A stretch of DNA of 64,000 nucleotides from an uncultured Spirochaetota bacterium (GCA_963768055.1 CAVYGN010000002.1:1824112-1888111), one strand, 5' to 3'. Shown: positions 30,291 through 62,791, numbered from the stretch's first letter. The notes: a model not told the origin generated them from the letters alone. Translations and numbers: made by a program.

Positions 30291-30318
30291 TTGCTTTTAG
30301 ATAGGTTGTGAAATGTCA

Positions 30319-30379
30319 GACCCGAATGAATGAACCTGCAGGAGAGTTGTTGAAGCGGATTATTGAGGAGAAGGGATGA
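30319..30379 (+). pseudogene. Relic of a type I R-M specificity subunit (HsdS) C-terminus
   Basis: Reads DPN(D)EPAGELLKRIIEEKG* with a 1-nt insertion. Confidence 0.6.
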
Positions 30380-30652
30380 AATAATGAACAATTTTTCAAT
30401 ATATAAATACTTACCCAACGATTTTGCTGATAACTTTATTACAAAAGGTGAAGTCCTTTTTAGACCTCTAACTTATTTTATAAAAGAATTTAATGAAAAA
30501 ATTACTCTGATATCAGATATTTTTATATTTATACTTATGGCCATGTATTTTATTAGTTCAATATAAACAGGTATATAAATCGGAATTTCCCATTATAATA
30601 AATGTTTTGTCTTTTCCCTCTGCATTTCCATTCCAGCCTGCCACATTGAATT

Positions 30653-30681
30653 TTGATAAAAGCGCCAAGAGGGGATAGAAT
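30653..30681 (+). promoter_or_regulatory. Sigma70-like promoter in junction repeat (copies at 31780-31808, 32367-32395, 33568-33596)
   Basis: TTGATA-17bp-TAGAAT in all four copies. Confidence 0.8.
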
Positions 30682-30717
30682 AAAGGAATGTCAACAAATA
30701 AATTTTAAGGGGAAGAT

Positions 30718-31083
30718 ATGAAAATAAAAACACGAGAACAAATTCCATCTGAAGCTATTGTTGAGCGTTATGGTGTTAATAAAGAGCTTGTGATTGGTGA
30801 ATATGATGATTCTAACCAGATTGTATTAAGAATAATAAGTCTTGATGTAAACAAGTTTATTCCTGTCCATATACATGATTTTCCTCATATCTGGAAGATT
30901 GAAAAAGGTCTTGGCTTATTAACTGATAATGATGGTATTGAGCATAGAGTAGAGGCAGGGCAATTCCTTTTTATTAAAAATAATGAAAAACATGGTATTA
31001 GAAACATTGGGGATGATAAACTTGAATATTTATGCTTCGGGACAATTGAAAGCGAAAAAATAGCTCCTCAAAAAGCTGATTAA
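30718..31083 (+). CDS. Cupin domain protein
   Basis: PVHIH...GLG...GQFLFI..NEKHGIRN. Confidence 0.85.
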   Translation: MKIKTREQIPSEAIVERYGVNKELVIGEYDDSNQIVLRIISLDVNKFIPVHIHDFPHIWKIEKGLGLLTDNDGIEHRVEAGQFLFIKNNEKHGIRNIGDDKLEYLCFGTIESEKIAPQKAD

Positions 31084-31124
31084 AAAGATTTTTGGAGTAT
31101 TAATGGTTCGATTATACTGGAGGC

Positions 31125-31736
31125 ATGATGAGTAATGAAATACAATCTCTTGGATTTAATCCGACTGGTATAAAAGGAAAATTTACTGGTATTTTAATGA
31201 ATATTATTCATGGCAATCAATATAAAAAAATTATTAAAAAATACATACTGAATAGAGTTAATTCAAGAGATGAGCTTAAAATATTAGATATTGGTTGTGG
31301 AGGAGGAAAAGCAGTAAATATTTTTTCAATATTGTTAATGAACTCAAAAATTTATGGAATTGACCATTCCGCTGATATGGTAGCTCTTTCAGGCAAAGTC
31401 AATAAAAAAGGCATTAAAGAGGGTAATGTTGAAATAAATCAGGGAGATATAATAGCTCTTCCTTATTCAGATAGATATTTTGACATGATAACGGCTTTTG
31501 ATACTATAAATTTCTGGAATGATTTTAATAAAGCTATTTCTGAAATAATAAGAGTATTGAAAAAAGGCGGGGCTTTCATTATAGTAAACGCTTATCCAAA
31601 AGAAGGGACAAAATGGTGGGATTTTGTAAAATTTAAAAATGATAGTGAATATCGGGAAGCATTGGTAAAACATAATTTTTCAGATATAAATATTATTATT
31701 GATAAAAACAATATAATAATACAGGCTAAAAAATAG
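31125..31736 (+). CDS. Class I SAM-dependent methyltransferase
   Basis: ILDIGCGGG, GIDHS and RVLKKGG motifs. Confidence 0.92.
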   Translation: MMSNEIQSLGFNPTGIKGKFTGILMNIIHGNQYKKIIKKYILNRVNSRDELKILDIGCGGGKAVNIFSILLMNSKIYGIDHSADMVALSGKVNKKGIKEGNVEINQGDIIALPYSDRYFDMITAFDTINFWNDFNKAISEIIRVLKKGGAFIIVNAYPKEGTKWWDFVKFKNDSEYREALVKHNFSDINIIIDKNNIIIQAKK

Positions 31737-31832
31737 TCTATTGCTCTTCCCCCCTCTGCTTTGCCAGACTCTAATAATTTTGATAAAAGCGCCAGGAGGG
31801 GATAGAATAAAAGAAATAAATGAAGGAATATT

Positions 31833-32318
31833 ATGGATACAAATGAAATAAATGATATTGAAATGATAAAATTATTAATTGAAATAATTAAATGGGGCAA
31901 AGAAATAGTAATATCAAATAATAACGAGCTATTGTTATACCAACAATTGAGTAAAATAAACACCTTATATTTTGATTTGGATGAATCATCAGATGATAAA
32001 CAATATCCAGAACCTCCAAGTTTTGATTATGATAAAATCGCCAAAAATGTTCAATTTAACTTTAAAAAATTTGGTTATTATAATATTCCATTAGAGATTA
32101 CTGAGAATATAGGAGAAACAGGATTAAGTGTTGGAGATGCAGTTGATGACTTATCTGACATTATAAGAGATTTTCTTGGAATCAATTGGTATTATGAAAA
32201 TACTTCATTAGGAAATGCAATCTGGTACTTTAAATTTTTATTTAAAACTCATTTTGGACTTCATCTTATTAATTTAATGATGTATCTACATAATTATTTG
32301 TTTTATAAAAACCAATGA
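31833..32318 (+). CDS. DUF5063-like protein
   Basis: DAVDDLSDI..D and W.F...F..HFG.H pattern. Confidence 0.65.
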   Translation: MDTNEINDIEMIKLLIEIIKWGKEIVISNNNELLLYQQLSKINTLYFDLDESSDDKQYPEPPSFDYDKIAKNVQFNFKKFGYYNIPLEITENIGETGLSVGDAVDDLSDIIRDFLGINWYYENTSLGNAIWYFKFLFKTHFGLHLINLMMYLHNYLFYKNQ

Positions 32319-32428
32319 AATATCTCTTTTCCTTCCCCCTTCTATCCGTCATACTCTATTAAAATTTTGATAAATCTTTATGATGGGATTAGAATAATGG
32401 TGAATGTCATGGAATAGGAGATGGCAAG

Positions 32429-33115
32429 TTGTATAATGATTATATGACCAAAAAACTAATAGATAATGGCGCCACTCTTGTAGGTTTTGCTGATTTAACT
32501 GTTCTACCTGAAAATATCAGACATTCTTTTCAATATGGAATTGTAATTGCGATAGCATTAGATAAAAAAATTGTTTCCCGAAATCTCACTGGACCTCAAA
32601 TGGACTACTATAATGAAGAAATGAATGTAAATGATAAATTGGATGAATTATGTGAGTATTCAGCCGAACTAATTAAAAAGGAAGGATTTGATACCTTTCC
32701 TCAATCCAGAAGATTAATAAAAGTAGATGATAATTTTAGAACTTTGCTTCCACATAAGACTATAGCTACATTAGCGGGAATTGGCTGGATTGGTAAATCG
32801 GCGGTTATGGTCAATAAAGATTATGGATCTGCTATTAGATTAACATCGGTTTTAACGAATATACCTTTCAAGACGGGCATTCCAATTACCGAATCATTAT
32901 GCGGTAAATGCGATATTTGTGTTTTTCATTGTCCGGGAAAAGCTATAAAAGGCAATATGTGGAATCCTGGGGTTGATAGGAATAAATTAGTTGATGTTAA
33001 AATATGTAAAAAAACCGCTACTGAAAGTGGAAAGATATTTAATCAAACTGAAGTGATGTGTGAAATATGTTTTTCAATATGCCCATATACAAAAAAATAC
33101 ATTAATTCAGATTAA
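32429..33115 (+). CDS. QueG/reductive-dehalogenase-like 4Fe-4S ferredoxin-domain protein
   Basis: HKTIATLAGIGWIGK, CGKCDICVFHCP and CEICFSICP motifs. Confidence 0.88.
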   Translation: MYNDYMTKKLIDNGATLVGFADLTVLPENIRHSFQYGIVIAIALDKKIVSRNLTGPQMDYYNEEMNVNDKLDELCEYSAELIKKEGFDTFPQSRRLIKVDDNFRTLLPHKTIATLAGIGWIGKSAVMVNKDYGSAIRLTSVLTNIPFKTGIPITESLCGKCDICVFHCPGKAIKGNMWNPGVDRNKLVDVKICKKTATESGKIFNQTEVMCEICFSICPYTKKYINSD

Positions 33116-33169
33116 GTATATTCCGCTCCCTCTGCTTTGCCTGCTAAAGAAATTTTAAGGAGTAATAAA

Positions 33170-33505
33170 ATGAAAAACATCGTGGGTCTTATTCTAATAA
33201 TAAGTTTATTTACTTCCTGCACAACTCTAATCAATTCATCGAAATCAATTGGTGATTTTAATATTTCAGTCACTGCATCAGAAAATAATAATGGTGATTT
33301 TATCAGAATAAGAGGGAAAAACATATCCAGCGCTTTATATATAAAAGAATATGATATAATTTTCAAAAGTGATAAAGTATTTGTAAAAATATTTGAGACC
33401 CTTAAAGATACAGGATATTCAGATGGATACGATATTCAATTTTATATTCCGAAAAGCATTAAATTTATTATCCTCGGGGATAATGAAATTGTCTGGAAGA
33501 GATAA
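33170..33505 (+). CDS. Small putative lipoprotein
   Basis: AAGGAG RBS; MKNIVGLILIISLFTSC lipobox. Confidence 0.7.
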   Translation: MKNIVGLILIISLFTSCTTLINSSKSIGDFNISVTASENNNGDFIRIRGKNISSALYIKEYDIIFKSDKVFVKIFETLKDTGYSDGYDIQFYIPKSIKFIILGDNEIVWKR

Positions 33506-33645
33506 TTTATTCCACCCTTTCACTCCCTTTGCCTTCCCCTTTCCAGCTTGCCATACTCTCTTGAATTTTGATAAAAGCGCCCGGAGAGGATAGAATAAAG
33601 GAAAATTTCACAATGAGATTTTAAATAGATACTGAGGAGATTTTA

Positions 33646-34101
33646 ATGGATTACAAAAACATGACTGCTCCATGCGGGATTCCTTGTTTTGAATGTGTGT
33701 CATATAAAGCAAAATCAAATGAAGCTATAAAAAAGAGGGTTTCGGAAGGAACGGGATTGGCTTACGATAAATCAGATTGTGAGGGCTGCCGAAATAGGAA
33801 TGGTAAAGCCTTTTTAGCTGAAAAAAACAATATATTCCCCGAAGGTAAACCTTTGTTGTTAAATGAAAAAGGTCAATGTAAGATTTTTCTTTGTACTGAA
33901 AAAAGAAAAATTCACAATTGTAGCGAATGCGATAATTTCCCTTGTGATAATCTTCAACCATTAGCAGATAGAGCAGATAAAATTCCACATAACCTGAAAA
34001 TTTACAATTTGTGTTTGATAAAGAAATTAGGGCTTGAAAAATGGGCGGAAGAAAAAGCGGCAAAAACAATGAATGATTACAGGACAAAAAAATTTGATTG
34101 A
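33646..34101 (+). CDS. DUF3795-like Cys-rich protein
   Basis: APCGIPCFEC, CEGCR and CSECDNFPC motifs. Confidence 0.8.
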   Translation: MDYKNMTAPCGIPCFECVSYKAKSNEAIKKRVSEGTGLAYDKSDCEGCRNRNGKAFLAEKNNIFPEGKPLLLNEKGQCKIFLCTEKRKIHNCSECDNFPCDNLQPLADRADKIPHNLKIYNLCLIKKLGLEKWAEEKAAKTMNDYRTKKFD

Positions 34102-34208
34102 TTTTTGATAAAAACTATAGCTCATCCGCTCCCCCTGCTTTGCCTGCTATGAGGGATGGGGGGAAAGAAATATAAGAGGTTAATTAATTTAAAAGAATAG
34201 GAGAGTAA

Positions 34209-35207
34209 ATGGATACTGCAGTAATCGAAAACGAATTATTAGATATTGTATATAGCTATCGAAAAGCTCAGCTTCTTTATGTTGCCACCAAATTGAACAT
34301 TTCCGATATTTTAGCGGATGGGCCCAAGTCAAGCGATGAAATAGCCCTGATTACTGAAACAAATTCTGATTCTATATATAGAGTAATGAGAGCCTTATCA
34401 AGTTTTGGGATTTATAAGGAGAATCCTGATAAATACTTCAAGATAACTGAAAAAGGTGAATTATTAAAAAAAGATAGTCCAAGTTCAGTCAGAATAAATG
34501 TTGTAATGCGAATGGATGAATATAACTGGAAACCCTGGGGAGAATTACTAAATAGTGTTAAGACTGGTGAAAATGCATTTGAGAATATTTTTGGTATGAA
34601 TTTATTTGAATATCTGACTAAAAACCCAGAATCATCAAAAACATTTAGTAAAGCTATGGGAACTTTTACTCAAAAAATCATAAAACTTGTTTTAGATAAT
34701 TATGATTTTTCTTCCTATAATTTGATTGCTGATATCGGCGGAAGCAATGGTGATTTATTAAGGCAAATATTATTAAAATATTCACATATATCGGGTTTAT
34801 TGTTTGACTTGCCAATTGTTATTGAAAATGTAAATCCTGATATTTTTGAACCAAGTATATCAAACAGATTAAAATTAGTCAGTGGAAGTTTTTTTGACTC
34901 GATTCCAACAAGTTGTGATTTATATATTTTTAAGAAGATAATTCATGATTGGGATGATGAACATTCAATAAAAATCCTTACAAATTGTTATAATGCCGCA
35001 AAAAAAGGATCTAAAATTTTAATAATTGAAAATGTTATAGATCCGCAAAATAAAAATTCAGCAACGATAATTAATGATATTCATATGCTTGTTCAAACAA
35101 TTGGTGGCCGAGAAAGAACTCAGGATGAATATTATAAATTACTGCAGGAAGCAGGATTTGAACCACTAACAGGATGCTTGAATTATATCGAAGCGATAAA
35201 GAATTGA
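34209..35207 (+). CDS. O-methyltransferase (dimerisation + Methyltransf_2 domains)
   Basis: ADIGGSNG, GSFF, IIHDWDD and GGRERT motifs. Confidence 0.92.
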   Translation: MDTAVIENELLDIVYSYRKAQLLYVATKLNISDILADGPKSSDEIALITETNSDSIYRVMRALSSFGIYKENPDKYFKITEKGELLKKDSPSSVRINVVMRMDEYNWKPWGELLNSVKTGENAFENIFGMNLFEYLTKNPESSKTFSKAMGTFTQKIIKLVLDNYDFSSYNLIADIGGSNGDLLRQILLKYSHISGLLFDLPIVIENVNPDIFEPSISNRLKLVSGSFFDSIPTSCDLYIFKKIIHDWDDEHSIKILTNCYNAAKKGSKILIIENVIDPQNKNSATIINDIHMLVQTIGGRERTQDEYYKLLQEAGFEPLTGCLNYIEAIKN

Positions 35208-35285
35208 ATAATTAAAGTATTCTCTCCCCTCTGCTTTGCCTGCTGTGAGGGATGGATATAATGAATATGATAAAAGAATAAAATT

Positions 35286-36044
35286 ATGAGAACAATTATT
35301 ATTAGTTCATTCTTTTCTGGAGCAATAGGAACAATTATTGGGAGTATAATAGGTATTTTTCTTAAAGATTTTATTATTACTAATTATTTTATCAAGAAAA
35401 AAGAAAAAAATGAGTTAATAGCAGTATACAAAAAATATAGAATTCCAATCAGAAAAGCGGCAGTAGAATTACATACAAGATTTAATGAAGTTATTGAGAA
35501 ATATCCTCCAATTTATCTTAAAAGTAATGTTTTAAAAATAAAACAGGAGAGTATAAAAACAAATACTATTGCTGATGAGCATTTTCAAAAATATAAATTA
35601 GTTAGTTCCATTTATCGATTATATGCTTTTTTAGGTTGGATTGAACTTTATAGGCAAGAAATTATATTATTGGATTGTGGATCAGAAAAAAGAAATTGTG
35701 TTATTAATAAATCAATTGATAATATAATATCCTGGTTAGCAGATGGTCAATTAAATATAAATAATGATTGGGAAAATTGGGATGATTATTTGATATTTCG
35801 TGAAGAATGTAGAGCAATAGGTGAAATGATGATTATAAATAATAATGGAAGAAAAGAAATAATTGGATATATGAAATTTGTTGAATTTTTTGAAAATAGT
35901 ATTATTAATAATGATAATCAATGGATTGGTAAAGGTATCAATCTTTTAATAGATTTAAAAATAAAAAAAGATTTTAGAAAGAATAGAATAGAAAATATAA
36001 AGAATGAGTTGTCAATATTAATTGGTTCATTAGAAATAGTTTAA
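35286..36044 (+). CDS. Hypothetical protein with N-terminal TM helix
   Basis: 252 aa AT-rich ORF between junction repeats. Confidence 0.75.
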   Translation: MRTIIISSFFSGAIGTIIGSIIGIFLKDFIITNYFIKKKEKNELIAVYKKYRIPIRKAAVELHTRFNEVIEKYPPIYLKSNVLKIKQESIKTNTIADEHFQKYKLVSSIYRLYAFLGWIELYRQEIILLDCGSEKRNCVINKSIDNIISWLADGQLNINNDWENWDDYLIFREECRAIGEMMIINNNGRKEIIGYMKFVEFFENSIINNDNQWIGKGINLLIDLKIKKDFRKNRIENIKNELSILIGSLEIV

Positions 36045-36155
36045 CATAAAAATGAGTACATATAATCAAACAATTGTGTCTCTTCACCTTTCATTTCCCC
36101 CTCACCCATACCCGATAATTAATTCACAAAAATAAACATAAAGGAGATTGGGATT

Positions 36156-36527
36156 ATGCCAGGTAAAAGAAAAAGTGCAGAAGAAAGAGTAAAAGAACTT
36201 CAGCAGAAAATTAAAGACATTAAAGCAGCAGAACTATTAAAAGGAAAAAAGGAAGATAAGAAATGGATTAAGATTGACCCAAAAATCGGCGCATTTGTAA
36301 GAGAGGCATTTCAAAACAATTTCGACGGAATGACCCTTGATAATTTGAAAGCTGAAATAAAGAAGATAATTGAACCGAGGAAGCCAGGAGCAAAGCGAGG
36401 TCCTAAACCTAAAAGCGAGAAAGAACCTAAATCTAAGAGGGCTTATAATAAGAAACCGAAAGCTGTAGAAGCTGAAAATACTCCACAAGCGGAAGGGGAA
36501 GCTGAACAGACACAGAAGGTGGAATAA
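36156..36527 (+). CDS. Lys-rich putative nucleoid-associated protein
   Basis: Coiled-coil N-terminus, KRGPKPK and KRAYNKKPK basic motifs; AAGGAG RBS. Confidence 0.6.
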   Translation: MPGKRKSAEERVKELQQKIKDIKAAELLKGKKEDKKWIKIDPKIGAFVREAFQNNFDGMTLDNLKAEIKKIIEPRKPGAKRGPKPKSEKEPKSKRAYNKKPKAVEAENTPQAEGEAEQTQKVE

Positions 36528-36541
36528 GGGAATTTAATATG

Positions 36542-36570
36542 CAGGCTGACTGATATGGTTGGCCTGTTTT
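36542..36570 (+). terminator. Rho-independent terminator
   Basis: CAGGCTGAC/GTTGGCCTG hairpin followed by TTTT. Confidence 0.7.
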
Positions 36571-36653
36571 CTCATCCTTTCAATAATTAACTTTGTTCGG
36601 CATTGGAACAAGGTTCATATCAGGAAAATTCCAATAATATTTGTTATAAGCTA

Positions 36654-36682
36654 TTGAGAGAATTTAGAAACGGGGGTATAAT
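36654..36682 (+). promoter_or_regulatory. Family-2 repeated promoter (second copy at 38137-38165)
   Basis: TTGAGA-17bp-TATAAT; CTATTGAGAGA.TTT.GAA.CGGGGGTATAAT in both copies. Confidence 0.8.
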
Positions 36683-36707
36683 TAAAAAAATTCATAAGGG
36701 AGCAATT

Positions 36708-38051
36708 ATGGATTTAAATAATTCTTTAAAAGAAATGTCTGAAAATTGGGTTCAGGGTTCTTATAGCATGTTCTCCTTGAAAATAAGTTTAAAAGATGAT
36801 AGTGAAGAAGAAAACAGACCATCTATAATGCATGAATATACACATTATTTACAAAATATAACCACTTTTCATGGTTTTACAAAAATTGATGATTACATTA
36901 GATTATTCTTATTTATTTTCACTAAATTAGGATCAAATCAGGTTGATCCAACTATTCCTCTCAATAAAGATAAAAATTTAATGGAGGAATTGGAAAATCA
37001 TAATTTAGAAAATTTGAATAAATCAAGAAAATTAGGAATGGAACGTATTAATAATGAATATATCTTTGATGATTATATTTGTGATGATTATTCAATTATT
37101 ATACAAGAGATTATAAATCCTTACCATAATAAAAAAATACAAATGCCATTTCTTATTATAAATAATAAAAAAATTCCATTAAATGAAATAGTAATTCGAG
37201 AAAATATGGCAATGATAAATACTGTATTATCAGAAAGTTCGGATATGGAATCAAAATATAAAAAAATAAGTGCGTTTAAATATAAAGAATATACTTCAAT
37301 ATTTCTGTTTATTATACATTATTTCCCTGATAAAGATACATTACAATTAACTTATCAAATATGTGAGTTAGCATTAAATGTTTTGCCCATCGAAAAAAGT
37401 ATTTATAATATTATTCAATTTATAAAAGATAATTACAAAAACCTTAATGATAAAAATGAAATTAATATTATTGAAGAAATAAAAATCAATTTAAATTATA
37501 TTGATGTTTTTAATAGGCTATATTCAACAGTTCAGAAAATGGCAAATGAAAGAATTGAAATGTTTGATAAAATCATAAAAACAAATGGGAATGATTTTGT
37601 AATATTTTTAAAAAACTTTTATTTTTACATATTAAAAGGATTAGGTCTGAGATTCAATAAGCAAAGTCTATATTTAAACCCAATTACAAATGATTATTTG
37701 AATAGTTTAATTTCAATAATTGGTTCTCCATTTATTTATTATGAAAATAAAAAAGTGGTAAGACAATTAAATAATATTGACACATATTTTCTGGATGATT
37801 TTATATTTCTCCATTCTTCCTTGGAAGTGTTCTTTACTGCATACTATGAAAAATTACAGTGTTGCCCCTTTTATAATTCGGGTATTTGTAAAGAAGATAA
37901 GAATAATAATTGTAAAGATAATTGTTTGCAAAATTTTATGCAAGATAATTATGAATTGTGTTTATTGAATAATTCTTTACTTTGTTCTGGAATACGGAGT
38001 ATTGAAAGATGGGAAAATGAAAAAATTGGAAAAAATATTATTTTACTTTAG
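36708..38051 (+). CDS. Hypothetical protein with HExxH motif and Cys-rich C-terminus
   Basis: MHEYTHYLQ; C-terminal CCPF...C...C...C. Confidence 0.7.
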   Translation: MDLNNSLKEMSENWVQGSYSMFSLKISLKDDSEEENRPSIMHEYTHYLQNITTFHGFTKIDDYIRLFLFIFTKLGSNQVDPTIPLNKDKNLMEELENHNLENLNKSRKLGMERINNEYIFDDYICDDYSIIIQEIINPYHNKKIQMPFLIINNKKIPLNEIVIRENMAMINTVLSESSDMESKYKKISAFKYKEYTSIFLFIIHYFPDKDTLQLTYQICELALNVLPIEKSIYNIIQFIKDNYKNLNDKNEINIIEEIKINLNYIDVFNRLYSTVQKMANERIEMFDKIIKTNGNDFVIFLKNFYFYILKGLGLRFNKQSLYLNPITNDYLNSLISIIGSPFIYYENKKVVRQLNNIDTYFLDDFIFLHSSLEVFFTAYYEKLQCCPFYNSGICKEDKNNNCKDNCLQNFMQDNYELCLLNNSLLCSGIRSIERWENEKIGKNIILL

Positions 38052-38777
38052 ATTTTGAAAAATATATCTTTCTTTACCCCCTTCCCCCTTTATTTTAACA
38101 TTGGGTTCTTATCCATAAATATATTGTTAAAATCTATTGAGAGATTTTTGAAGCGGGGGTATAATGAGGAGAAACATTTGTATTTTATCTGGGGGTACAA
38201 ATGGGAATTTATGAAAAAGGTTCAGAATGGAGAAGGTGGGATTTACATATTCATACTAAAAATACAGCTAAAAATGATAGGTTTAAATCTAAAGATTTTG
38301 AATCTTTTTGTGAGATATGTTTTAAAAAAGCATTAGAAAAGAACATAGCGGTAATTGGAATAACTGATTATTATTGTATTGAAAATTATAAACAAGTTAA
38401 ACAATATGTTTTTGATATAAATAAAAAAACATGTTTTTCTGATGAAGAAAAATCGAAAATTAAAAAAATCTTCATTCTCCCAAATGTAGAACTACGAATT
38501 TTACCTGTAGCCGATAGTGGAAGATTAGTTAATATCCACTGTTTGTTTAATCCATTATTTGAAGATAAATTAGAAAACAATTTCTTTGATATTATACACC
38601 ATTATGGAGGATCAGGCAAAAAGTTCCCTATGAATAGACAAGGTTTAATAGATTTAGGAAAATCAATGGATTCAACTTTAAAAAAATCGAAAGATCAATA
38701 CAAAAAGGGATTAGAAACATTTACTGTTTCCCCCGTGTGTTAGGATAGTTGTCGCCTAAAATATTAGGAGACAAAAA

Positions 38778-39260
38778 ATGAATAGTCAAATTCGTTCAGA
38801 GGAATTCAGGAAATCTATCGTTCAAAAGATGTGTATGCCAGGAGGAAAAACAGTATCTGAACTGAGCCAGGAAATAGGAGTATGTGAACAAACCCTTTAC
38901 AACTGGAGGAAAATGATCCAGAATAATGTATCCAGAGGATTCCAGGATAGAAGCCCGAGAGGCTGGAAATTATCTGATAAATATCAGGCGGTAGTAGACG
39001 CAGCAAGCCAATCGGGAGAAGAGTTAGGACAGTGGTTGAGAAAAAATGGTCTCCAGTCGACTCATATCGAACTCTGGAAACAGGAGTGTTTATCAGTGAT
39101 ATCTAATAACTCATACAGAGAAGAAAACAAGGGTTTGAAAGCAAAAATCATAGAGTTAGAAAAAGAAATTAACCGTAAGGATAAAACTATAGCCGAGGTT
39201 ACTTCTCTGCTGGTGCTTAAAAAAAAACTGAACAAGCTGTTCGGGATCGAGGAAGATTAA
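38778..39260 (+). CDS. IS3 transposase OrfA
   Basis: HTH GVCEQTLYNW; ends LLVLKKK at the frameshift site. Confidence 0.88.
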   Translation: MNSQIRSEEFRKSIVQKMCMPGGKTVSELSQEIGVCEQTLYNWRKMIQNNVSRGFQDRSPRGWKLSDKYQAVVDAASQSGEELGQWLRKNGLQSTHIELWKQECLSVISNNSYREENKGLKAKIIELEKEINRKDKTIAEVTSLLVLKKKLNKLFGIEED

Positions 39261-39265
39261 CTCCA

Positions 39266-40294
39266 TTGGATATACGCATAGATATCTGTGCCTTGATTAA
39301 TGAGGCTGTTACGACAGGGGCCAGCAGGGATAAGGCTTGTGAAGAATCTGGCTATGATATAAGGACCATACAGCGCTGGAATAAAAATCTTGAGGGAGAC
39401 AGAAGAAAATTGAGAAATGTAATGCCTTCAAATGCCCTGTCGGCCGAAGAAAGGGAGGAGATCATCTCCTGCTGTTGCAGCGAGAGATTTAGAGATATGA
39501 CGCCGAATGAAATAGTGCCCATGCTGGCAGAGGAAGGTCGGTATATAGCATCAGAATCATCTTTTTACCGCGTTTTAAAGGACAATGATTTGCTGCACCA
39601 TAGATACGAAACGAAGCCGAAAACGGCAAGGAAAACGCCAAGAGAACTGGAAGCGACGGGTCCTAATCAGGTATGGAGTTGGGATATTACATATATATCC
39701 AGTCATATAAAAGGTAAGTATTTCTACCTCTATATGATCGAAGATGTCTGGAGCCGTAAGATAGTCGGCTGGAAAATGCACGAGGAGGAAAGCTCTGATC
39801 ATGCCGCAAGAATGGTGGCAGAGATCGGAGAAACCATTGATTTGAAAGGCTTGTATTTACATTCTGATAATGGTTCTCCTATGAAAGGGGCTACGATGTT
39901 AGCGACCTTGCAGAGGTTACAGGTTATGCCGTCGTTTTCAAGGCCGAGTGTAAGTAACGATAACCCTTACTCAGAATCATTGTTTAAAACATTGAAATAT
40001 AATGTGAAATACCCAGGCAATTTCGAGACAATGGAATCGGTAGAAATATGGATGCAAAATTTTGTAGACTGGTATAATAATAAACATCTTCATTCAGGGA
40101 TCGGATATGTCACACCAGCACAGAGACATGAAGGTAAAGATAAGGCGATACTCCTGAAGAGAGCGGAAACTTATGCGGCTGCAAAAAGCAGACATCCTGA
40201 AAGATGGTCAGGAGAATCTAAAAAATGGGAACGGATAGAATCGGTATTTTTAAACCCGAGTAAGACTAACAAGGAATCGTTGGTTGCGGCGTAA
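39266..40294 (+). CDS. IS3 transposase OrfB (DDE)
   Basis: WSWDITY, HSDNGSPMK and DNPYSESLF motifs. Confidence 0.92.
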   Translation: MDIRIDICALINEAVTTGASRDKACEESGYDIRTIQRWNKNLEGDRRKLRNVMPSNALSAEEREEIISCCCSERFRDMTPNEIVPMLAEEGRYIASESSFYRVLKDNDLLHHRYETKPKTARKTPRELEATGPNQVWSWDITYISSHIKGKYFYLYMIEDVWSRKIVGWKMHEEESSDHAARMVAEIGETIDLKGLYLHSDNGSPMKGATMLATLQRLQVMPSFSRPSVSNDNPYSESLFKTLKYNVKYPGNFETMESVEIWMQNFVDWYNNKHLHSGIGYVTPAQRHEGKDKAILLKRAETYAAAKSRHPERWSGESKKWERIESVFLNPSKTNKESLVAA

Positions 40295-42698
40295 AATAAA
40301 AGCGACAACTCCCTTGACAAAAACCGTTTCTCATGAAAGTTTACAAGATTTATTAGATGAAAATATGGATTACAGAGAAAATACCATCATTGTAGTTAGT
40401 AATTCTAATAAAGATGGGGCTTCTGCTTTTCAAAAACATTATGATCTTTTTGAAGATTGTGATTCAAGCAGTCTTGAAGGAGTTAGAAAATCAATTTATT
40501 GTATTTCTCAAGCAATATTTTCAAGCAATGAAGAAGACAGAAAATATTTTTTGGGGAAAAAGAAAGATGACGAAGAAACAGTAAAATCAAAATGCGGTTC
40601 ATTAAAGCCTTGTATTCATGGAAGTGATGCTCACACTGAAGATGAATTATTTTCTCCTGATAAAAATAGATATTGCTGGATAAAAGCAGATCCAACTTTT
40701 GAGGGTTTAAAACAGATTATTTATGAACCAGAAGGTCGAGTAAAAATTCAGGAAGAAAAACCAATTTCTCCTGTAAGAAAAATATCTAATATAACTTTAA
40801 ATTTTGAAAAAAATACTGATATTCGACTTAAGGAAAAAAATGAACAAGATATATTTTGTTTTTCTGGAGTTAAAGAAATTATACCTTTGAATGATTATTT
40901 TAATTGTTTTATTGGAGGTAGAGGTACTGGGAAAAGTACTTTATTAAATTTAATTTACAAATCATTTTATCCGGGAAAAGATACTGATTATTTTAATAAA
41001 AATAAAATAATTCTTGATGACAAGGAAATAAATATTTCAGAAACAGTTATATTAGATAGCACTGCTGAAAAAATTGAGTTTCTTCAACAAAATCAAATTG
41101 AAGACTTTGCTATTGATCCAATTGAATTTACAAAAGCAATTTATGATAGATTAAAAAATAAAGAAATAGAAAAATTTGAAAATATTATTTCTGAATCCAT
41201 TAGGCAAATAAATAAACAAATTGAAAATATTCAAAATCAGTTGATCATTGGAAAAGAAATTGAGGAATTAAACATTGAATATAAATCAAATAAGAAAATC
41301 ACAGATACTCTTGATAAGAATGAATACAAAATAATTATAGAAGAGATACAAAACCTAAATAATAAATATTTAATTTTAAAAAATGATAGGGATACAATAG
41401 AATCATTAATAAATGATGTTGATAACTTTTTATCTAATCATATTAAGTATAGAATTGTTGATAGTTCATCTGAATATAATATAAGTTTTAATAAATTTAT
41501 TGATTATTTAGAAAAAATTAAAACAGAAATATTAGATAATAAAAATTTTATTAAACTTAAAGATGAAGAAAATACTTTGCTTAAAAAAATTAGTGAACAA
41601 AAAGAAAAACTTGAAATATATTTAACTGAACAAGGATTAAGTGAAGAAAATCTTGAGGATGTTAAAACTGCAAGTACTAAAACCGAAGAATTGAAAATTC
41701 AGATAGAAAAGAAAAAATTAGAATTAAAAAATATATTGAAAAAGAATGGTAATATTTCAATTGATAATATTAATAAAAATAAAAATGAGTTTGGAGAAAT
41801 ATTACAAAAAAGAATTAATGAATTCATAAATATATTAGATGAAGTAAATAAGCAAAATCCAAAAGATGTTGATAAAATTGAATTATCATTTTCATATAAT
41901 GAAGAATTGGCAAAATCTGAATTATGTGAAGAATTCCATAATATATTTAAATCTTATAAAAAAAAATACAATACAAAATCAACAGATATTAATGATTGTT
42001 TGTTTCAAAATAACCCTTATGACTTAATAGATGGTAAAATAACATATGAAGAATTTATGAATAAAATTAAAGGTGATAATCAATATAATCAGTGTTTAAA
42101 TGATATATTTAAAAAAAAATTTAATTATGAAATCTATTTGCTTCTACTTAATAAATATTATCAGAATCTATTCAAATATTTGAAAATTGATGTAATGTAT
42201 AAGAATAAGCCAATGCTTCAGGCTTCTTTTGGTCAGAAATGTACAGCTGTAATTATTATAATGCTATTATTTGGGCATAATCCAATTATTATCGATGAAC
42301 CTGAAGCACACCTTGACAGTTCATTAATAGCAAATTATCTTGTTAATTTGATAATGAAAGAAAAAATTAAGAGGCAAATTATATTTGCAACACACAATGC
42401 GAATTTTGTAATTAATGCTGATGCCGAACAAATTTATATTTTAGAAATGCCTGAAAAAAGAACTAACTTTATTCAGACTACTATTGAAAATCAAATATAT
42501 AGAGATAAATTACTGAAACTTGAAGGAGGATCGGAAGCTTTTAAAAAAAGAGAAAATAAATATGGCTTAAAAAAATAATAATAGAGTGAATATTCAAAAA
42601 TTAATAAAATTATTTATTTTTGTACATTTTTAAATTCCATTTTCTTTACCCCCTTACCCCTTTATTATATAATACCCTATTACAAAGCGAGGTTTATT

Positions 42699-43019
42699 AT
42701 GTCAAAAAGCGCTTTTAAAAAACTTGACCTTATAGAACTTGTCCTCGAAGATCCCGAAATCAAAGAACTTGGTATTCAAAGGAAAGAAGTCTCAACCATC
42801 ATTTCCAAATTCATAGACAAGCTTAAGGGCTCTATAGAGAAGCTCGATGCAAGTGACAGAATTGAGCTGCGCGGTTTAGGCACATTCGGTGTGAAGCAAA
42901 GGAAAGCCAGGATAGGCAGGAACCCAAGGACTGGGGCAGAGGTAATGGTCCCTGTAAGGAAATCAGCATACTTTAAGCCTGGAAGGGAGATGAAAGAGGG
43001 TGTTAGAGGGAAGGAATAA
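42699..43019 (+). CDS. HU/IHF-family DNA-binding protein
   Basis: IELRGLGTF...RKARIGRNPRTG...FKPG. Confidence 0.93.
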   Translation: MSKSAFKKLDLIELVLEDPEIKELGIQRKEVSTIISKFIDKLKGSIEKLDASDRIELRGLGTFGVKQRKARIGRNPRTGAEVMVPVRKSAYFKPGREMKEGVRGKE

Positions 43020-43327
43020 TGCCTGATTATTTTATAGATGATCCTATTGAAGCTATGAAAAAGTGTTCCTGATGCGGAGGAAAAACAAAAAGCAAAGGAT
43101 TTTACTCTGTTCCATTTAAATCCCGCATAAAAGATGCATTTAAAGGATATGAGGGAATGGCATTTGAAATGACATTAAAACCTTTAAATAAGAAATTTGT
43201 TGTGTTTCTTGCAGGAAAAAATTCGGCAGCTTTGAAAGATGGTAAAGATGGTTCCATAATAGCTTGCAGCCTTGAATGTAGCCATAAAATAGGTGAAGCA
43301 ATATCAAAGGAAGAAAATTTTAAATAG
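43019..43327 (+). pseudogene. Unannotated 102-codon CxxC protein with in-frame TGA at 43070
   Basis: TAATG overlap with the HU stop; MPDY...KKCS*CGGK...IIACSLECSHK...*. Confidence 0.6.
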
Positions 43328-43339
43328 GAATAAAATTCC

Positions 43340-43693
43340 TTGGAGGATATTTTGGCGGAAAGACTTACCCGTATTCAGGTTTATATAAAGGGTTGTTATG
43401 AATTGAAAGGAAATCAGGGTGAATGCAATATCGTTGATATATCGGAAGGTGGAATTGGCTTATCGGTCAGGCAAACACTTGTCCTTGGTGATTTGGTTCA
43501 TGTTAATTTCAGAATCCCTATTGGTAAAGAAGAAGAAATAGATTTTTGGGGCATAGTTAGAAATGTAAACAATAATATCATCGGGTTGAAATATGAAGAA
43601 ATTACTCACGATAATATTGATAGAATAGACAATTATGTGTCATTACTACTTGCGCAAAGCGGTAAAAGGGCAAAAGAAAATTTTGAAAAATAG
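43340..43693 (+). CDS. PilZ domain protein
   Basis: ERLTR and DISEGG motifs. Confidence 0.85.
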   Translation: MEDILAERLTRIQVYIKGCYELKGNQGECNIVDISEGGIGLSVRQTLVLGDLVHVNFRIPIGKEEEIDFWGIVRNVNNNIIGLKYEEITHDNIDRIDNYVSLLLAQSGKRAKENFEK

Positions 43694-44162
43694 AAAATCC
43701 TTCCAATAGCCCTTATCTTTCATAAATATTACCTAATTATCATAAACTGGGTTAATTTGCCGCCACAGTGAATAAAATGACATTATTTAGAGCTCTTGCA
43801 AATATCGAAATAATAATTTTAATTTTGAATATAACCGATGATTTATGTATTATTATAAATAATAATGCATACTTCCTCCTATAAAAAAGCCCTGTCTTGT
43901 CTTGTAGGCAGGGCTTAATAATTATAAATTTCATATAAGTGGTGATGTTTAAAAGGTAATCACAAATAGGATTCTCACCCTCATGATAAACAAATTTCCC
44001 ATAGACTCCACAAATAGAATTCTCCCTTTATCACAAAATTTCACGGGATTTAATCTACCTTTAAATATTTTAATAGAGCCCTTGACTAATACTAACTATT
44101 TGTTACATAATTATATTGAAGAATTGAGTTAAAATTTACTTTGTAAAATAATTTATATTAAA

Positions 44163-45074
44163 GTGAGAATATTTAGTATGGATCCAATAATGGCAATAAT
44201 TGCGGATTATCAGGTCCTGACCGACAGGGACACATTTGAATCCATATCAGATAATGTCAAACAGCTCACTCTTGATTATCTTGCTGCTGGGATCGACCCC
44301 GATAATGGAAAAACCTTCATTTTTCCCCATAGCCACGTACCTGAGTTGAACCAGCTGTTATTGCCTTTTCTTACGCTGGTATCGATTGCAGAATTGGATA
44401 GGAACCCTACTGTTAAAGAGGAAATACAGGCGTCGGGGCAGAAAAGAATCAATGCAGGTATGTATACCTATCCGGTTCATCAAGCTGCCGACATACTTTT
44501 CTGCAAGGCTAACGTTGTGCCGGTAGGCAAAGATCAGCTTCCGCATCTGGAACTGACCCGTATAATCGCGCGAAGGTTCAATAACCGTTTTGCTAAGGAA
44601 AAACCTGTATTTCCCGAACCCCAACCTCTGTTAAGCAAGGCTCCGGTCATACTTGGGCTTGACGGTTCTCAGAAAATGAGTAAAAGCAGGAATAACGCTA
44701 TTATGCTTAGCGCATCGGAAGATGAAACGGCTGACCTGATCAAGAAAGCAAAGACGGATACTGATCGATTAATAACATACGACCCGGTGAAAAGACCAGA
44801 GGTTTCGAATCTAATCCTTCTCGTCTCCCTTTCAACAGGGCGGGCTCCTGATTCCATCGCACAGGAAATCGGTGATAATGGATCTGGGCAATTGAAAAAG
44901 ATCTTGACCGAATCCCTGAATGAATATTTAAGGTCCCTGCGGAAAAGACGTGTCGAGCTTGCTTCCAATTTGGATTATATAAGTCAAGTACTTAAAAAAG
45001 GTGTTGAAGAAGCCAGGAAAATAGCGTCTGCAACACTTGAGGAAGTAAGGGAAGTCATGAATATGAAGCTTTAA
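44163..45074 (+). pseudogene. trpS: Tryptophanyl-tRNA synthetase, 5'-truncated (HIGH region missing)
   Basis: IADYQ, YPVHQAADIL, VPVGKDQ and KMSKS present; no TGxxPT/HIGH N-terminus upstream. Confidence 0.85.
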
Positions 45075-45166
45075 TGGACAAACTTTCATTAGGGGAAACC
45101 TGAATTATGACTCTTTGGAAGTGTTGTTGAAGTAGATTCTGTTGGAGATGGTGAAAGGAGATTGAA

Positions 45167-46176
45167 TTGTTTACAAAAGAAATTACATCTTATGATCAAT
45201 CTATATATGAAAAAATAAAATACAGAAAAGTAATAATCTTTGACACAAATATATGGATTGATCTATCTGAAAATAATAAAACATTAATTCAAGAAGTAAA
45301 ACAACTTCTAATAAATTTAGTGAAAAAGGAAGTAATATTCTGTCCTATATCTTTACCTATTATTTGGAACTTCATAAGCAAAATTATGAATCAGCTCTTA
45401 GAACAGGGAACTTAATGGAACAATTAAGTTTAAACATTTGCTTCAGTAATAGGCATGAAATTGTTAACTATGAATTATTAAACTATATACAAACTATTTT
45501 CAATAAAAAGAATAATCTCTCAATTGACCCGAAACTTTACAGGTATGTTTATGTTATGAACTATTTAAGTAGTAGACGTAAAATCAATTTTCCAGACACA
45601 TTTCCGAAAGAATATATTGATGAATTTATCAAAATATTTAATCAAGAAATACCAAATATAACTATTACGGATTATATTGCTATGTCAAAAGATTTATTTT
45701 CTTTAGATATGTTTACAATCAAATCGGATTTCCAAGAAGTTTGTAATGAAAAAAAAGTTATATCAAAAGGATCAAGAGAAATAAACAGAAAAATCGAAGT
45801 AGATTATATACTAAATGATTTTGTTATACCTGCATTAATGTTGTTACCTAAAGAAACTAAGGATGCTTTACTGGAATACTATAAATTGCAACCAAAAGAA
45901 AGTATTCCAAATATTATTATTCATAATATACCAACTCTTAATTGTTTTGTTGAGATTATGCATATTACATCGTTGGATGATAATAGAAAAGATAGAATTA
46001 ATGACTTCTATGATAGAGAAATTATGATAGAAGCTTTGGCTTATGTCGATGTTTTTGTATCACAAGATAAATGGATTCACAATTTATTGAATAATGAAAT
46101 AGATTTAAAGACGATTAGCAATGTCGATTATTTCAACAGTTTTGAATGTTTTAAAGATTATTTATTGAGACTTTAA
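45167..46176 (+). pseudogene. PIN-like domain protein split by a frameshift near 45364
   Basis: IIFDTNIWIDL in the first ORF; NDFYD...VFVSQD in the second. Confidence 0.55.
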
Positions 46177-46265
46177 AATCAATTTATTAGGAGAATCTTT
46201 AACTAAAATTATCCCTATTATTTCAAATATTTATTGTAATCTGTTACCATATAATATATAATAGT

Positions 46266-46473
46266 GTGGGTATAAATTGGTACCAATTTGGGTACACATA
46301 ATTTGCAACTTTTTGAAAATGAGACAATCTTAATTGCTTCTAATTTAAAGAAATAGGAAAATTAGGTTCTTCTCGCTTTATCCCTCCTCCTCCGAATGAT
46401 TTTCTCTCATAACTCCTTTCATATCAACAATTAAATATTAAAAAGCATCAACTGATTACGATTTGTAAATATA
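46266..46473 (+). repeat. About 200-bp att-like junction R1
   Basis: Near-identical to 49787-50005; TTGGTACCAATTTGGGTAC arm, core ATCCCTCCTCCTCCG, TGATTAC arm. Confidence 0.85.
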
Positions 46474-46803: not shown

Positions 46804-47547
46804 TCATCCAGAATCTTTAGCATAAATTTTACGCATAGAATCAACCCCCTTCAATTCGATTTTAATAGCACTATGATTTATCCTGTCACAGATCGCATCT
46901 GCTATAGTAGGATCGCCAATTTTTTCAAACCAATCTTTTACCGGCAGCTGAGAAGTTATCAGAGTAGAGTTTCTGCCATGCCGGTCCTCGAGCATCTCTA
47001 AAAGAGACAATCTTGAAGGAGTATCAAGAATTTCAAGCCCGAAATCATCAAGGATCAATAAATCCTGTTTCTGGATCAGATTCATTTCTCTGGCGTAACT
47101 GCCTTCCGCTTTCGCAAATTTTAGCCGTGTAAAAATCTTTAGACAGCTGAAATAAAGGGTCTTGTAACCCTGCCGGCAAGCCTGATTACCAAAAGCTGTT
47201 GCAAGATAGCTTTTCCCGCTCCCGGTAGAGCCTGTAATAGCCATATCTTTTTTCGTTCGTATCCAATCACAATTTGAAAGCCTCAATATTAGATTTTTAT
47301 CCAGTTCTCTATCCGGCCGGTAAGAAAGATTCTCCAAACCGGCCTGATACCGGAAACGTCCCTTTTTGATTAAAGTAGATAGTTTGCGGTTATACCTTTC
47401 ATCCCATTCCGAATCAACAAGATACGCAACCGTTTCATCAGCGGTCAGGCCGTCAGGTGTTTTTCCAGCGATGATATCTTCAAACGCCCGGGACATCCCA
47501 TGTAGTTTCATCTTCTGCATTTTTTCAATCGTTGCTTCATTGGTCAT
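46804..47547 (-). CDS. istB: IS21 helper ATPase IstB
   Basis: GSTGSGKS, LILDDFG, TSQLP and DAICDR motifs. Confidence 0.95.
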   Translation of the reverse strand: MTNEATIEKMQKMKLHGMSRAFEDIIAGKTPDGLTADETVAYLVDSEWDERYNRKLSTLIKKGRFRYQAGLENLSYRPDRELDKNLILRLSNCDWIRTKKDMAITGSTGSGKSYLATAFGNQACRQGYKTLYFSCLKIFTRLKFAKAEGSYAREMNLIQKQDLLILDDFGLEILDTPSRLSLLEMLEDRHGRNSTLITSQLPVKDWFEKIGDPTIADAICDRINHSAIKIELKGVDSMRKIYAKDSG

Positions 47548-47559
47548 ATTCACTTCCTC

Positions 47560-49116
47560 TTATTCAAAATATTCTCTGCCGCGGATATTTTCATGCATGT
47601 TAGCAGCCGAAAACAACACCGCCTCTTCCTCAAAATTATCAAGCCCCTTCTCCAGAATCCGTTTTATTCCCTGATACGAATAATATTGGAAATCAAGCGC
47701 CCGTTTGCAGGCTTTATCCAGCCTTTCTTTCCCAAATTTCTTAGCCAGGCTTAAGATGCCCAGGCAGACCTTATATGCCTGTTCAGGATAATCCTTGCTT
47801 TCCAGAACTCTCTTAATTATTTCTTCAATATTCGGACCAAGCGACTTACCCCAATGTGTTAACTTCTCCGGATTCCAGTCTCCGACCCACTTGTGATGGG
47901 GCGGCATATGTTCATGTGTGGTTGTGTAGGTTTGTTTCCTTCGGTCCCGTGGATAGGCTGCAATACGAATATTATCAACAAATATTTCCACTGTCCGATC
48001 GGAAGTAACAATATCTGCCATCTTGCCTCTATACCGATATGGAACGCTGTAGTAATGAGAATCTTCTTTGAGGCAGACATGATAGTTGAATTGGATCTTA
48101 GCTTTTGAGAAGCTTTTAAAGCTGTATTTTTCCTTCGGAAGAGATTTCAGTTCTTTCTGTTCTGTTTGTTCAAAAAATTCCCGTCTGCTGATTTTTAGTT
48201 TCTGCATCTTCTTCGCATTATAGATTTCCAATTGTTCCCGGATAGCTGTGTTCAATTCTCCCAGAGAAAAGAAAACCCTATCCCTGAGAACGGCAAATAT
48301 CCAGCTGTAGGTGATTTTCACGGCGTTTTCAACATGTGCTTTATCACGCGGTTTATACGGCCTGGCAGGAAGGGGACAAATTGAATAATGCCTGCAAAAA
48401 TTCTGAAATTCAGCGTTGATGGCAGGTTCGTATTTATTTCCCATCGTTACAGCGCTTTTCAAACAATCGGGAATTATTGCTCTTGGTGATCCGCCGAAGT
48501 AATACAACGCATTCTCTATGGCCCGGATTAAATCTTCTTTCTTCTGGCTATCCGTCGCTTCCACGTATGTATACTGGCTTGCGCCAAGGATGGCTACAAA
48601 TACCTCTTTCTCGATAACTTCTCCTGTGTCGCGGTCTACAATCGGGAATTTCGTGCCGGTAAAATCAACAAAAAGCTTGTCCCCTGCCTTGTATTCCTGG
48701 TGCATGGATATCTCAAGAGACCCCTTCCAGAGCCCGTAGTGATAGCAAAACTGAGAATATTTATAGCCTTCGGGGTATTTTCCCCTGTATTCTTCCCAAA
48801 GCAATCTCAAATTGACCCCTGTACGCAGAAGTTCCATGCTGTATTGAGGAAATTCTTTGTATAGATTTTCCTTTGCGGTTTCTTCAATGTTGTCTCCTTC
48901 TGCCATCGACTCGAAAATTTCAATTAAAGCAGAATCGCTCATTTCATAAATTTCCGCGATGGTTAAACCGCTTTTTTCAAACCTGGATATATATCTTTGT
49001 ACTGTTGGCCTGGAAATATCCAGGGCCTTTGATGTAACACGGCAGCTCAGGCCGTTTTCTTTGATCATCCGGATCACTTCCCGGATTTTCTTCATAGGCT
49101 TCCTCCTGTTCGGCAT
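47560..49116 (-). CDS. istA: IS21 transposase IstA
   Basis: FVDFTG, PDCLKSAV and KPRDKAHVE motifs. Confidence 0.95.
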   Translation of the reverse strand: MPNRRKPMKKIREVIRMIKENGLSCRVTSKALDISRPTVQRYISRFEKSGLTIAEIYEMSDSALIEIFESMAEGDNIEETAKENLYKEFPQYSMELLRTGVNLRLLWEEYRGKYPEGYKYSQFCYHYGLWKGSLEISMHQEYKAGDKLFVDFTGTKFPIVDRDTGEVIEKEVFVAILGASQYTYVEATDSQKKEDLIRAIENALYYFGGSPRAIIPDCLKSAVTMGNKYEPAINAEFQNFCRHYSICPLPARPYKPRDKAHVENAVKITYSWIFAVLRDRVFFSLGELNTAIREQLEIYNAKKMQKLKISRREFFEQTEQKELKSLPKEKYSFKSFSKAKIQFNYHVCLKEDSHYYSVPYRYRGKMADIVTSDRTVEIFVDNIRIAAYPRDRRKQTYTTTHEHMPPHHKWVGDWNPEKLTHWGKSLGPNIEEIIKRVLESKDYPEQAYKVCLGILSLAKKFGKERLDKACKRALDFQYYSYQGIKRILEKGLDNFEEEAVLFSAANMHENIRGREYFE

Positions 49117-62768: not shown

Positions 62769-62791
62769 GGGCAGAAGATGATATTCCATAT

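Follow-up and report, generated by a model that had tools for sequence, protein, structure and literature searches.

We analyzed a 64,000-nucleotide stretch of DNA from an uncultured Spirochaetota bacterium (GCA_963768055.1, CAVYGN010000002.1:1824112-1888111; this whole stretch is called the window below), in which two AT-rich genes, one for a HExxH protein and one for a PHP-ATPase of the TrlF family, lie between two backbone genes and are accompanied by short repeated sequences. An earlier note on this DNA had described these repeats as a second family of junctions (family 2, beside a family 1 in the same window), with a promoter in front of each gene and a C-rich repeat behind it, and had taken the locus for an insertion hotspot with its own recombination sites. 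The results showed that the repeats are real, and they look like shared island promoters that mark a slot with different anti-phage genes in each copy.

Gene order and repeats of the locus

As listed in Table 1, all features of the slot region lie on the plus strand. Their order is the left backbone gene (called the 36156 gene after its start), its terminator, the promoter-like block P2a, the HExxH gene, a C-rich 26-mer, the block P2b, the PHP-ATPase gene split by an insertion sequence (IS) of the IS3 family, a second 26-mer followed by ATATAAT, and the IHF/HU-like right backbone gene. The genome searched was the bacterium's own assembly, which consists of two contigs (C1 and C2), is 94.75% complete and has a G+C content (GC) of 41.5%. 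The cargo genes, with 22-26% GC, lie below both this value and the two flanking genes (37.6% and 43.6%). A scan of 35900-43400 found no intrinsic terminator after the cargo genes and none at 38069 or 42641; the sole terminator-like site on the plus strand of this region lies at 36541-36567.

Table 1 Features of the slot region, tRNA genes next to the islands, and the three slots (positions in the window unless a contig is named).
Feature	Position	Strand	Description
P4 block	36078..36135	+	Conserved C-rich sequence CTTTCATTTCCCCCTCACCC...CGATAATTAATTCA 5' of the 36156 gene
Left backbone gene (36156 gene)	36156..36527	+	123-aa lysine-rich protein, ...AKRGPKPK... tail; GC 37.6%
Intrinsic terminator of the 36156 gene	36541..36574	+	12-pair stem, then TTTTCTC
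P2a	36624..36682	+	-35 at 36654-36659, -10 at 36677-36682
Cargo 1	36708..38051	+	447-aa HExxH protein; GC 22.2%
26-mer copy 1	38069..38094	+	5' part of P3: -35 TTTACC and C-rich spacer; TAACAT at the -10 position
P2b	38107..38165	+	-35 at 38137-38142, -10 at 38160-38165
Cargo 2, 5' piece	38201..38730	+	PHP part of TrlF-family (Ppl-like) AAA-like ATPase; GC 26.0%
IS3-family element	38731..40326	+	orfA 38778-39260, orfB 39266-40294; Pfam HTH_Tnp_1, rve, rve_3; GC 41.5%
Cargo 2, 3' piece	40331..42578	+	ATPase part of the TrlF-family protein
P3	42641..42673	+	26-mer copy 2 (42641-42666) gives -35 TTTACC and most of the 17-nt spacer; TATAAT 42668-42673
Right backbone gene	42699..43019	+	106-aa IHF/HU-like protein; Pfam Bac_DNA_binding, 77.6 bits; GC 43.6%
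tRNA-Ala	17239-17310		tRNA anchor of the window island
tRNA-Ser	C2:1129585		tRNA anchor
tRNA-Ser	C1:638768		tRNA anchor
tRNA-Tyr	C1:689795		tRNA anchor
Slot 1	window	+	HExxH and TrlF/Ppl-like PHP-ATPase (IS3-split)
Slot 2	C2:1152052-1148163	minus	Shedu SduA (Pfam 3.8e-26, PADLOC 1.1e-29), 263-aa and 196-aa proteins of unknown function, tautomerase
Slot 3	C1:717365-718800		One 8xMP membrane protein; no PADLOC match

P2 is a promoter-like block in front of AT-rich genes

The repeated TTGAGA-17-TATAAT promoter that had been noticed before both the HExxH gene and the PHP-ATPase gene was borne out by the pattern search and by the sigma-70 scan. As shown by pattern matching at up to 3 mismatches against 100 shuffles, the 32-nt pattern CTATTGAGAGA.TTT.GAA.CGGGGGTATAAT occurs at 36651-36682 and at 38134-38165, and these two matches compare with 0 in 100 shuffles. 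P2a and P2b were the top sigma-70-like sites of the region, with 11 of 12 hexamer positions; 25 nt separate P2a from the ATG at 36708, and 35 nt separate P2b from that at 38201. Four P2 copies were found in the genome, the two in the window, one at C1:618495 and one at C2:343470 (minus strand), and all four are co-oriented with an AT-rich open reading frame (ORF) whose start lies 25 to 230 nt downstream.

Among the P2 copies, the only change in the hexamers and the 17-nt spacing is one TTGAAA. Homology between the copies spans about -65 to -10 and ends there, with GGGGG just before the -10, so P2 looks like a promoter block of about -65 to -7. The copy at C2:343470 marks the exact change from core genes of 51-53% GC to an AT-rich island and has a HARE-HTH gene downstream. 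The C2:1151 paralogue of the locus has a TTGCAT-17-TATAAT promoter where P2a stands in the window, suggesting that a promoter directed into the slot is part of the backbone.

The C-rich 26-mer belongs to the predicted promoter of the HU-like gene

The C-rich repeat reported after each gene was recovered by the pattern search as a 26-mer at 38069-38094 and 42641-42666 (2 matches versus 0 in 100 shuffles). The two copies differ by one base and start 17 nt past the stop codon of the HExxH gene and 62 nt past that of the PHP-ATPase gene. The genome contains five copies of the 26-mer, and four of them are followed by ATATAAT, giving TTTACC-17-TATAAT (P3) with an ATG 25-39 nt further on; the P3 of the window has 10 of 12 hexamer positions. 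The remaining copy, at 38069, gave a truncated match to the P3 profile (nhmmer, E = 0.0098), and a sharp right border of homology was seen at TTTCTTTACC in 5/5 copies.

Complete P3 stands directly before an HU paralogue in two of its four occurrences (the window copy and C1:718432). At C2:1148725 (minus strand) it precedes a tautomerase gene that is followed by an HU paralogue, and at C1:670682 it precedes an unrelated gene. The third HU paralogue, C2:1161370, is preceded by a diverged P3 (TTGTCC-17-TATAAT; nhmmer E = 0.43), which keeps the hexamers and the spacing while the C-tracts have changed, and such conservation is expected of a promoter. These results indicated that the 26-mer is the -35 and spacer part of P3, the predicted native promoter of the HU-like gene.

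TACCCCC in the 26-mer was confirmed by sequence as the reverse complement of GGGGGTA in P2, with a match of only 7-9 nt. We rejected a reading of the pair as terminal inverted repeats, given this length and a position away from the ends of the homology blocks. The lone C-rich halves said to lie directly before the two backbone genes held in part: C-tracts do precede both genes, but the one before the HU-like gene is at the same time the copy behind the PHP-ATPase gene, and the one before the 36156 gene, which had been drawn into the same family scheme, belongs to the block P4 and thus to neither family 1 nor family 2.

The slot is filled differently in paralogous loci

At three loci of the genome (slots 1 to 3 in Table 1), genes like the 36156 gene and the HU-like gene were found with their order and orientation preserved. 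The slot content was different in all three, and recognised defence families were present in two of the three (TrlF/Ppl-like and Shedu), which agrees with the insertion hotspot proposed in the earlier note. The check suggested there, a comparison of what lies between homologues of the two genes, gave alternative cargo in the paralogues of the same genome, but none in other genomes and no empty site. The comparison is confined to one genome because neither gene nor repeat was found in the relatives searched.

A fourth 36156-like gene, at C1:614668, has other cargo, and about 3.5 kb further on a diverged C-rich-plus-P2 junction lies before a 442-aa gene. Past the 36156-like gene, homology stops at a different point in each of five copies, and these heterogeneous left breakpoints argue against one crossover site on the left. 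An 8-bp repeat, TTTCTTTA, that flanks the cargo of the C1:717 locus was set aside as too short and AT-rich to weigh. In the C2 island only, a gene for a 61-aa tautomerase (C2:1148690-1148505, minus strand) lies between P3 and the HU paralogue with no repeat at its borders, indicating that cargo also enters without junction repeats.

Cargo genes and the IS3-family element

The second cargo gene was assigned to the TrlF family. Its 5' piece matched NF045780 with 121.8 bits (profile positions 1-142) and its 3' piece with 364.8 bits (positions 173-944; cut-off 350), and the C-terminus matched the PADLOC anti-phage Ppl model with E = 6.3e-25 over about 115 residues only. The description of the cargo as defence-like was therefore upheld for the ATPase, while the HExxH gene was left without such support. 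The PHP-ATPase gene had been taken as intact; it is actually split by the IS3-family element, which is flanked by a target duplication, TTTC, at 38727-38730 and 40327-40330. When the IS and one TTTC copy were deleted in a script, a single open frame of 925 codons resulted. Copies of the element elsewhere in the genome include seven at 100% identity and six more at ≥99.1%. Since the 3' piece is in frame with the 5' piece after removal of the IS, and since near-identical IS copies exist, the gene was broken recently.

The HExxH protein is rare, with 13 homologues among 5.8 billion clusters, none of which has a Pfam domain. H42, E43, H46 and a C-terminal Cys cluster are invariant in this family. 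The protein belongs to no family in Pfam, NCBIfam or PADLOC, and its Atlas matches were unnamed clusters. A confident AlphaFold model (predicted local distance difference test (pLDDT) 82.1, predicted template modelling score (pTM) 0.85) had no match in the PDB by Foldseek at E <= 0.001. A distant relative with 24% identity was found in Treponema socranskii without a neighbour of about 900 aa, and a conserved pairing of HExxH and TrlF genes was not seen. On its scaffold (KE332515.1, 192803-205918) this relative lies among at least 16 small genes on one strand, and this run may be another spirochaete cassette-like array.

Backbone genes and the P4 block

The P4 block has seven genomic copies at E <= 4.5e-6 (nhmmer with a five-copy profile), which lie upstream of 36156-like or lysine-rich genes, and it was absent from the sigma-70-like sites listed at 9/12 or better. 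The 36156 protein is putatively DNA-binding, judged from its composition only. Searches of Pfam, NCBIfam and PADLOC assigned it to no family, and its best Atlas score was 0.86, to unnamed clusters. Four copies of the 36156-like gene are present in its own genome. Of the paralogues, that at C2:1151 retains the terminator of the 36156 gene, whereas a truncated form is present at C1:717 and C1:614.

The 36156 protein is a member of a lysine-rich family, encoded at window 36156-36527, C1:717365, C1:614668, C2:1151985 (minus strand) and C1:678400-678560, with tails reading ...AKRGPKPK... or ...KVKKAEGEAEQTQ. Each member lies behind a P4 block, and the members have an IHF/HU-like gene and foreign AT-rich genes as neighbours; in two copies the frame is shorter, and the tblastn match contains stop codons. 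This family beside an HU-like gene recalls what we take to be a similar case, the nucleoid-protein 'stealth' genes carried by plasmids. The right backbone protein scored 76.4 bits against the IHF-beta model, below the cut-off of 115, and the paralogues of its gene lie at C2:1148497, C2:1161370 and C1:718490.

Islands and family-1 junctions

Related integrases adjoin tRNA genes in four low-GC regions with the repeats, the window island and three others (Table 1). In the window, the tRNA-Ala gene is followed by two integrase genes, and it was the only Rfam match over the window at gathering thresholds. A repeat of the tRNA-Ala 3' end, which would define the right end of the island, was not found in the window. 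The integrase gene linked to tRNA-Ala shares 137 nt of its 5' part (17490-17626) with a second site at 62642-62778 (90% identity), which may be a decayed second integrase or an earlier border of the island. Backbone segments are shared between the islands at 85-93% identity, and we infer that the islands belong to one element family.

Family 1 comprises 26 P1 promoters by pattern search (for example window 30646-30688) and 28 C-rich elements by nhmmer, 21 of which lie on the plus strand of C1 at 583-731 kb. The surrounding region, C1:580000-745000, is a very large low-GC tract (26-38%) of mostly one-strand genes, in which unrelated single genes are separated by family-1 junctions; smaller tracts of this kind were seen at C2:1130000-1162000 and at window 28000-46000. 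A cupin-methyltransferase unit occurs in three contexts, with homology that starts at the -35 of P1 and, in two of the three, stops within the C-rich element. A promoter, one or more genes and a C-rich 3' piece thus seem to make up the general unit. In the same-genus genome G003 (G003:C1:1528698), a family-1 C-rich element sits on the 3' end of a gene homologous to that at C1:677900, and the homology ends after the GAGGG half, indicating that this element travels with its upstream gene. The family-1 28-mer gave one match, at 3 mismatches and in G003, among 12 relatives.

Interpretation of the repeats

Taking these results together, we lean towards a reading in which family 2 consists of two promoter modules, P2 and P3, of a mosaic family of tRNA-linked islands whose slot is filled differently in each copy, mostly with anti-phage genes. 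P2 would drive the AT-rich cargo genes, and P2a-HExxH and P2b-TrlF would be the two self-contained transcription units in the slot of the window. With the 26-mer at both of its ends, the TrlF unit would have been added by recombination through this sequence, either by Campbell-type insertion or by unequal crossover between island copies. Its entry would leave a promoter stump lacking the -10 at 38069, and the IS3-family element would later have broken the TrlF gene.

Several points weigh against this reading. The promoter activity of P2 and P3 is predicted from consensus, position and conservation only, and a homology of 26 bp is short for RecA-type recombination. Of the three slots, a single one uses P2 as such and none has the same pair of repeats at both sides, and the 7-nt complementarity in both junction families is unaccounted for. 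No HU gene lies near the diverged C-rich-plus-P2 junction at C1:618400-618526, which would fit equally well a C-rich piece that is the 3' element of the upstream gene. In addition, all locus comparisons are between paralogues inside one genome: none of 40 related genomes, four of them from the same genus, had the 36156 protein, and none of 12 relatives had the 26-mer when up to 3 mismatches were allowed. Four shallow DNA runs from a single study, each with 21-40% of the sampled words and with contigs mostly at 1-5x outside the IS, contained no empty site, no circle junction and no joint across the cargo; loose ends of their contigs matched the paralogous loci of this genome. The search for sequencing runs listed no RNA run that covers the region. 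In public collections, which may omit this genome's own records, a protein scan of metagenome contigs with the 36156 protein gave no relative, an exact scan of metagenome contigs with the 26-mer core gave one record in a GC-rich unrelated context, and a scan of genome contigs with the P2 pattern gave 0 matches.

It is possible, if unlikely, that the repeats are regulatory parts only, with the G/C tracts serving as operators of a shared regulator or as Rho-loading insulators behind each gene and the repeats kept alike by selection and gene conversion. They would then have no role in cargo movement, and the 26-mer at 38069 would be a working terminator, an operator or a weak promoter. This reading gains from a run of four to five G or C between the -35 and the -10 in all four 5' block families (GAGGGGA in P1, GGGGG in P2, CCCCC twice in P3 and CCCCC in P4), which could be a common operator or a structural spacer feature of otherwise AT-rich blocks; outside the islands the G-run with a -10 string is scattered and lies mostly inside genes. 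Of the 233 island ORFs, 35 (15.0%) are followed by a 25-nt tract that is rich in C and poor in G, compared with 60 of 2911 elsewhere (2.1%), and the movement of the family-1 C-rich element with its upstream gene in G003 points the same way. The composition of the 26-mer, 12-13 C and 0 G in 26 nt, would fit a Rho-dependent terminator, but Rho-loading sites are usually longer than these 26 nt. Likewise, P2b has a perfect 7-bp inverted repeat over its -35 (AAAATCT-6-AGATTTT), but this palindrome is imperfect in the other three P2 copies. Furthermore, no regulator was identified, and the presence of identical 5' and 3' parts on unrelated foreign genes is left unexplained.

A bolder reading, which we consider quite improbable, is that the islands (about 165 kb on C1 and the two smaller tracts) form a cassette system other than an integron, in which unrelated foreign genes are formatted with a few species-specific parts, P1 or P2 in front and a C-rich element behind, and are shuffled between arrays by a recombination activity at the junctions that was not found. 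The 26-mer pair around the TrlF unit would, with equally low probability, be one such event caught. If true, this would amount to a second, promoter-carrying solution to gene capture and a concrete mechanism for the movement of defence genes between hotspots.

More doubtful still is integron-like capture by a recombinase that was not found, in which the C-tract and the complementary G-tract form a folded or paired site and families 1 and 2 reflect two specificities. The layout is all that speaks for such a capture system: single units on one strand with species-specific junction repeats in three places (about 165 kb on C1, the window and C2:1153-1155 kb), a cupin-methyltransferase unit in three contexts, a complementary pair of 6-7 nt in both junction families, and 26-bp direct repeats flanking the TrlF unit. 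In the whole genome, the integron integrase model TIGR02249 gave 16 matches, none of them over the cut-off of 265 bits; the best scored 87.8 bits. Within C1 581-745 kb this search gave no tyrosine recombinase match, and integrase homologues there occur only beside tRNA genes. Since a cluster of attC sites lacking integron-integrases (CALIN) needs no IntI, the lack of an integrase alone does not exclude one; attC cores, RYYYAAC and GTTRRRY, were also absent from the junctions at 38052-38200 and 42579-42698, where the nearest strings, TTTTAAC and GTTAAAA, fail the consensus.

Folding of the junctions was not different from that of shuffled sequence either. In the DNA fold of 38062-38170, TACCCCC pairs with GGGGGTA, with z = 0.09 and 0.05 for the two strands, and the family-1 junctions gave z = -0.64 and -0.10. 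Across the 26 family-1 copies, the complementarity of the G-tract with its own upstream partner averaged 5.04 nt, compared with 4.74 nt with those of other copies (permutation p = 0.11). The idea of structure-based recognition, raised in the earlier note on the ground of covarying sites, thus found no support. The other idea raised there, two recombinase specificities, is countered by the missing integron integrase, the differing left breakpoints and the C-rich repeat being part of a predicted promoter. Each unit also has its own promoter, and the C-tract upstream of P2 is perfectly complementary in one of the four copies, has one mismatch in another and does not exist in the remaining two.

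Finally, it is hardly tenable that the repeats are worn ends of IS elements or miniature transposons with an outward promoter: the genome is rich in IS elements, but the aligned ends of three intact IS1380 copies, AACCCACATTTCCCAGATGAAA / TCATTTGGGAAATATCGGTT with an outward TTGACA...CATAAT, do not resemble P2, P3 or the 26-mer and were rejected as their source, none of the four P2 and five 26-mer copies adjoins a transposase end, and the IS3-family element is a later insertion into coding sequence.

Comparison with known systems

Morons of lambdoid phages are autonomous promoter-gene-terminator units between backbone genes. The units described here are similar in that they are self-contained, lie between backbone genes and differ from their surroundings in base composition; unlike morons, they have promoters and 3' elements standardised across unrelated genes, and no intrinsic terminator follows the cargo. 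Islands anchored at tRNA genes can grow by stacking modules that lack a recombinase, as in accretion of the cis-mobilizable element (CIME) type or in tycheposon-like islands. The present islands resemble these in being adjacent to tRNA genes with P4-type integrases and in stacking modules without a recombinase of their own. They differ in that the window holds no tRNA-Ala 3'-end repeat and that the junction repeats are promoter-like rather than att cores.

One-strand arrays of single-gene units, species-specific repeats and the same unit in different contexts are shared with integron arrays and CALINs (Cury et al. 2016, PMC4889954). In contrast to them, no IntI was found here, and attC cores and a supported hairpin are lacking. 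Integron cassettes are also described as generally promoterless (PMC1382264), while every unit here has a promoter of its own.

Defence hotspots (PMC9122126; PMC13586616; for Pseudomonas islands PMC12629846) show the same recurrence of conserved flanking genes around a slot whose cargo varies and is mostly anti-phage, as well as tRNA-linked islands with integrases and an unsettled route of cargo exchange. The present case differs in that the copies are paralogues within the genome of one uncultured spirochaete, that the cargo has recurrent near-identical promoters, that one unit is bracketed by a 26-bp repeat from the promoter of the neighbouring backbone gene, and that no phage or satellite genes were identified here. 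How defence genes move in and out of hotspots is unanswered: in a 2026 survey of P2/P4 hotspots (names unrelated to our blocks), transposons are nearly absent and homologous recombination would need flanking homology, and neither transposons nor enough flanking homology explain the movement (PMC13586616). The locus analyzed here is a small case of this problem, with the same two backbone genes flanking the slot in three island copies of one genome. If the short promoter and junction sequences act as recombination linkers, module swapping would be explained without a dedicated enzyme. If the repeats are only regulatory, they would still suggest that island-specific promoters with a G/C run control foreign, AT-rich defence genes in a coordinated way.

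Other features of the window

Upstream of the family-1 array of the window lie a truncated type IIG restriction-methylase fragment without its N-terminal half (27983-29335) and an FRG-domain gene (29427-30290), which matched the candidate defence family PDC-S15 with E = 2.8e-42 and adds to the defence content of this island. Immediately after the HU-like gene, a 102-codon Cys-rich ORF (43019-43327) has an in-frame TGA at codon 18; a paralogue of 94.5% identity (C2:1147449-1147140) has Trp at this codon, and the ORF of the window is probably a fresh pseudogene. Further on, two direct repeats of 245 nt with 87% identity (46221-46465 and 49742-49986) bracket an IS21-type element on the minus strand, with istA at 47560-49116 and istB at 46804-47553, and related copies are present at C2:1695833 and C2:22835.

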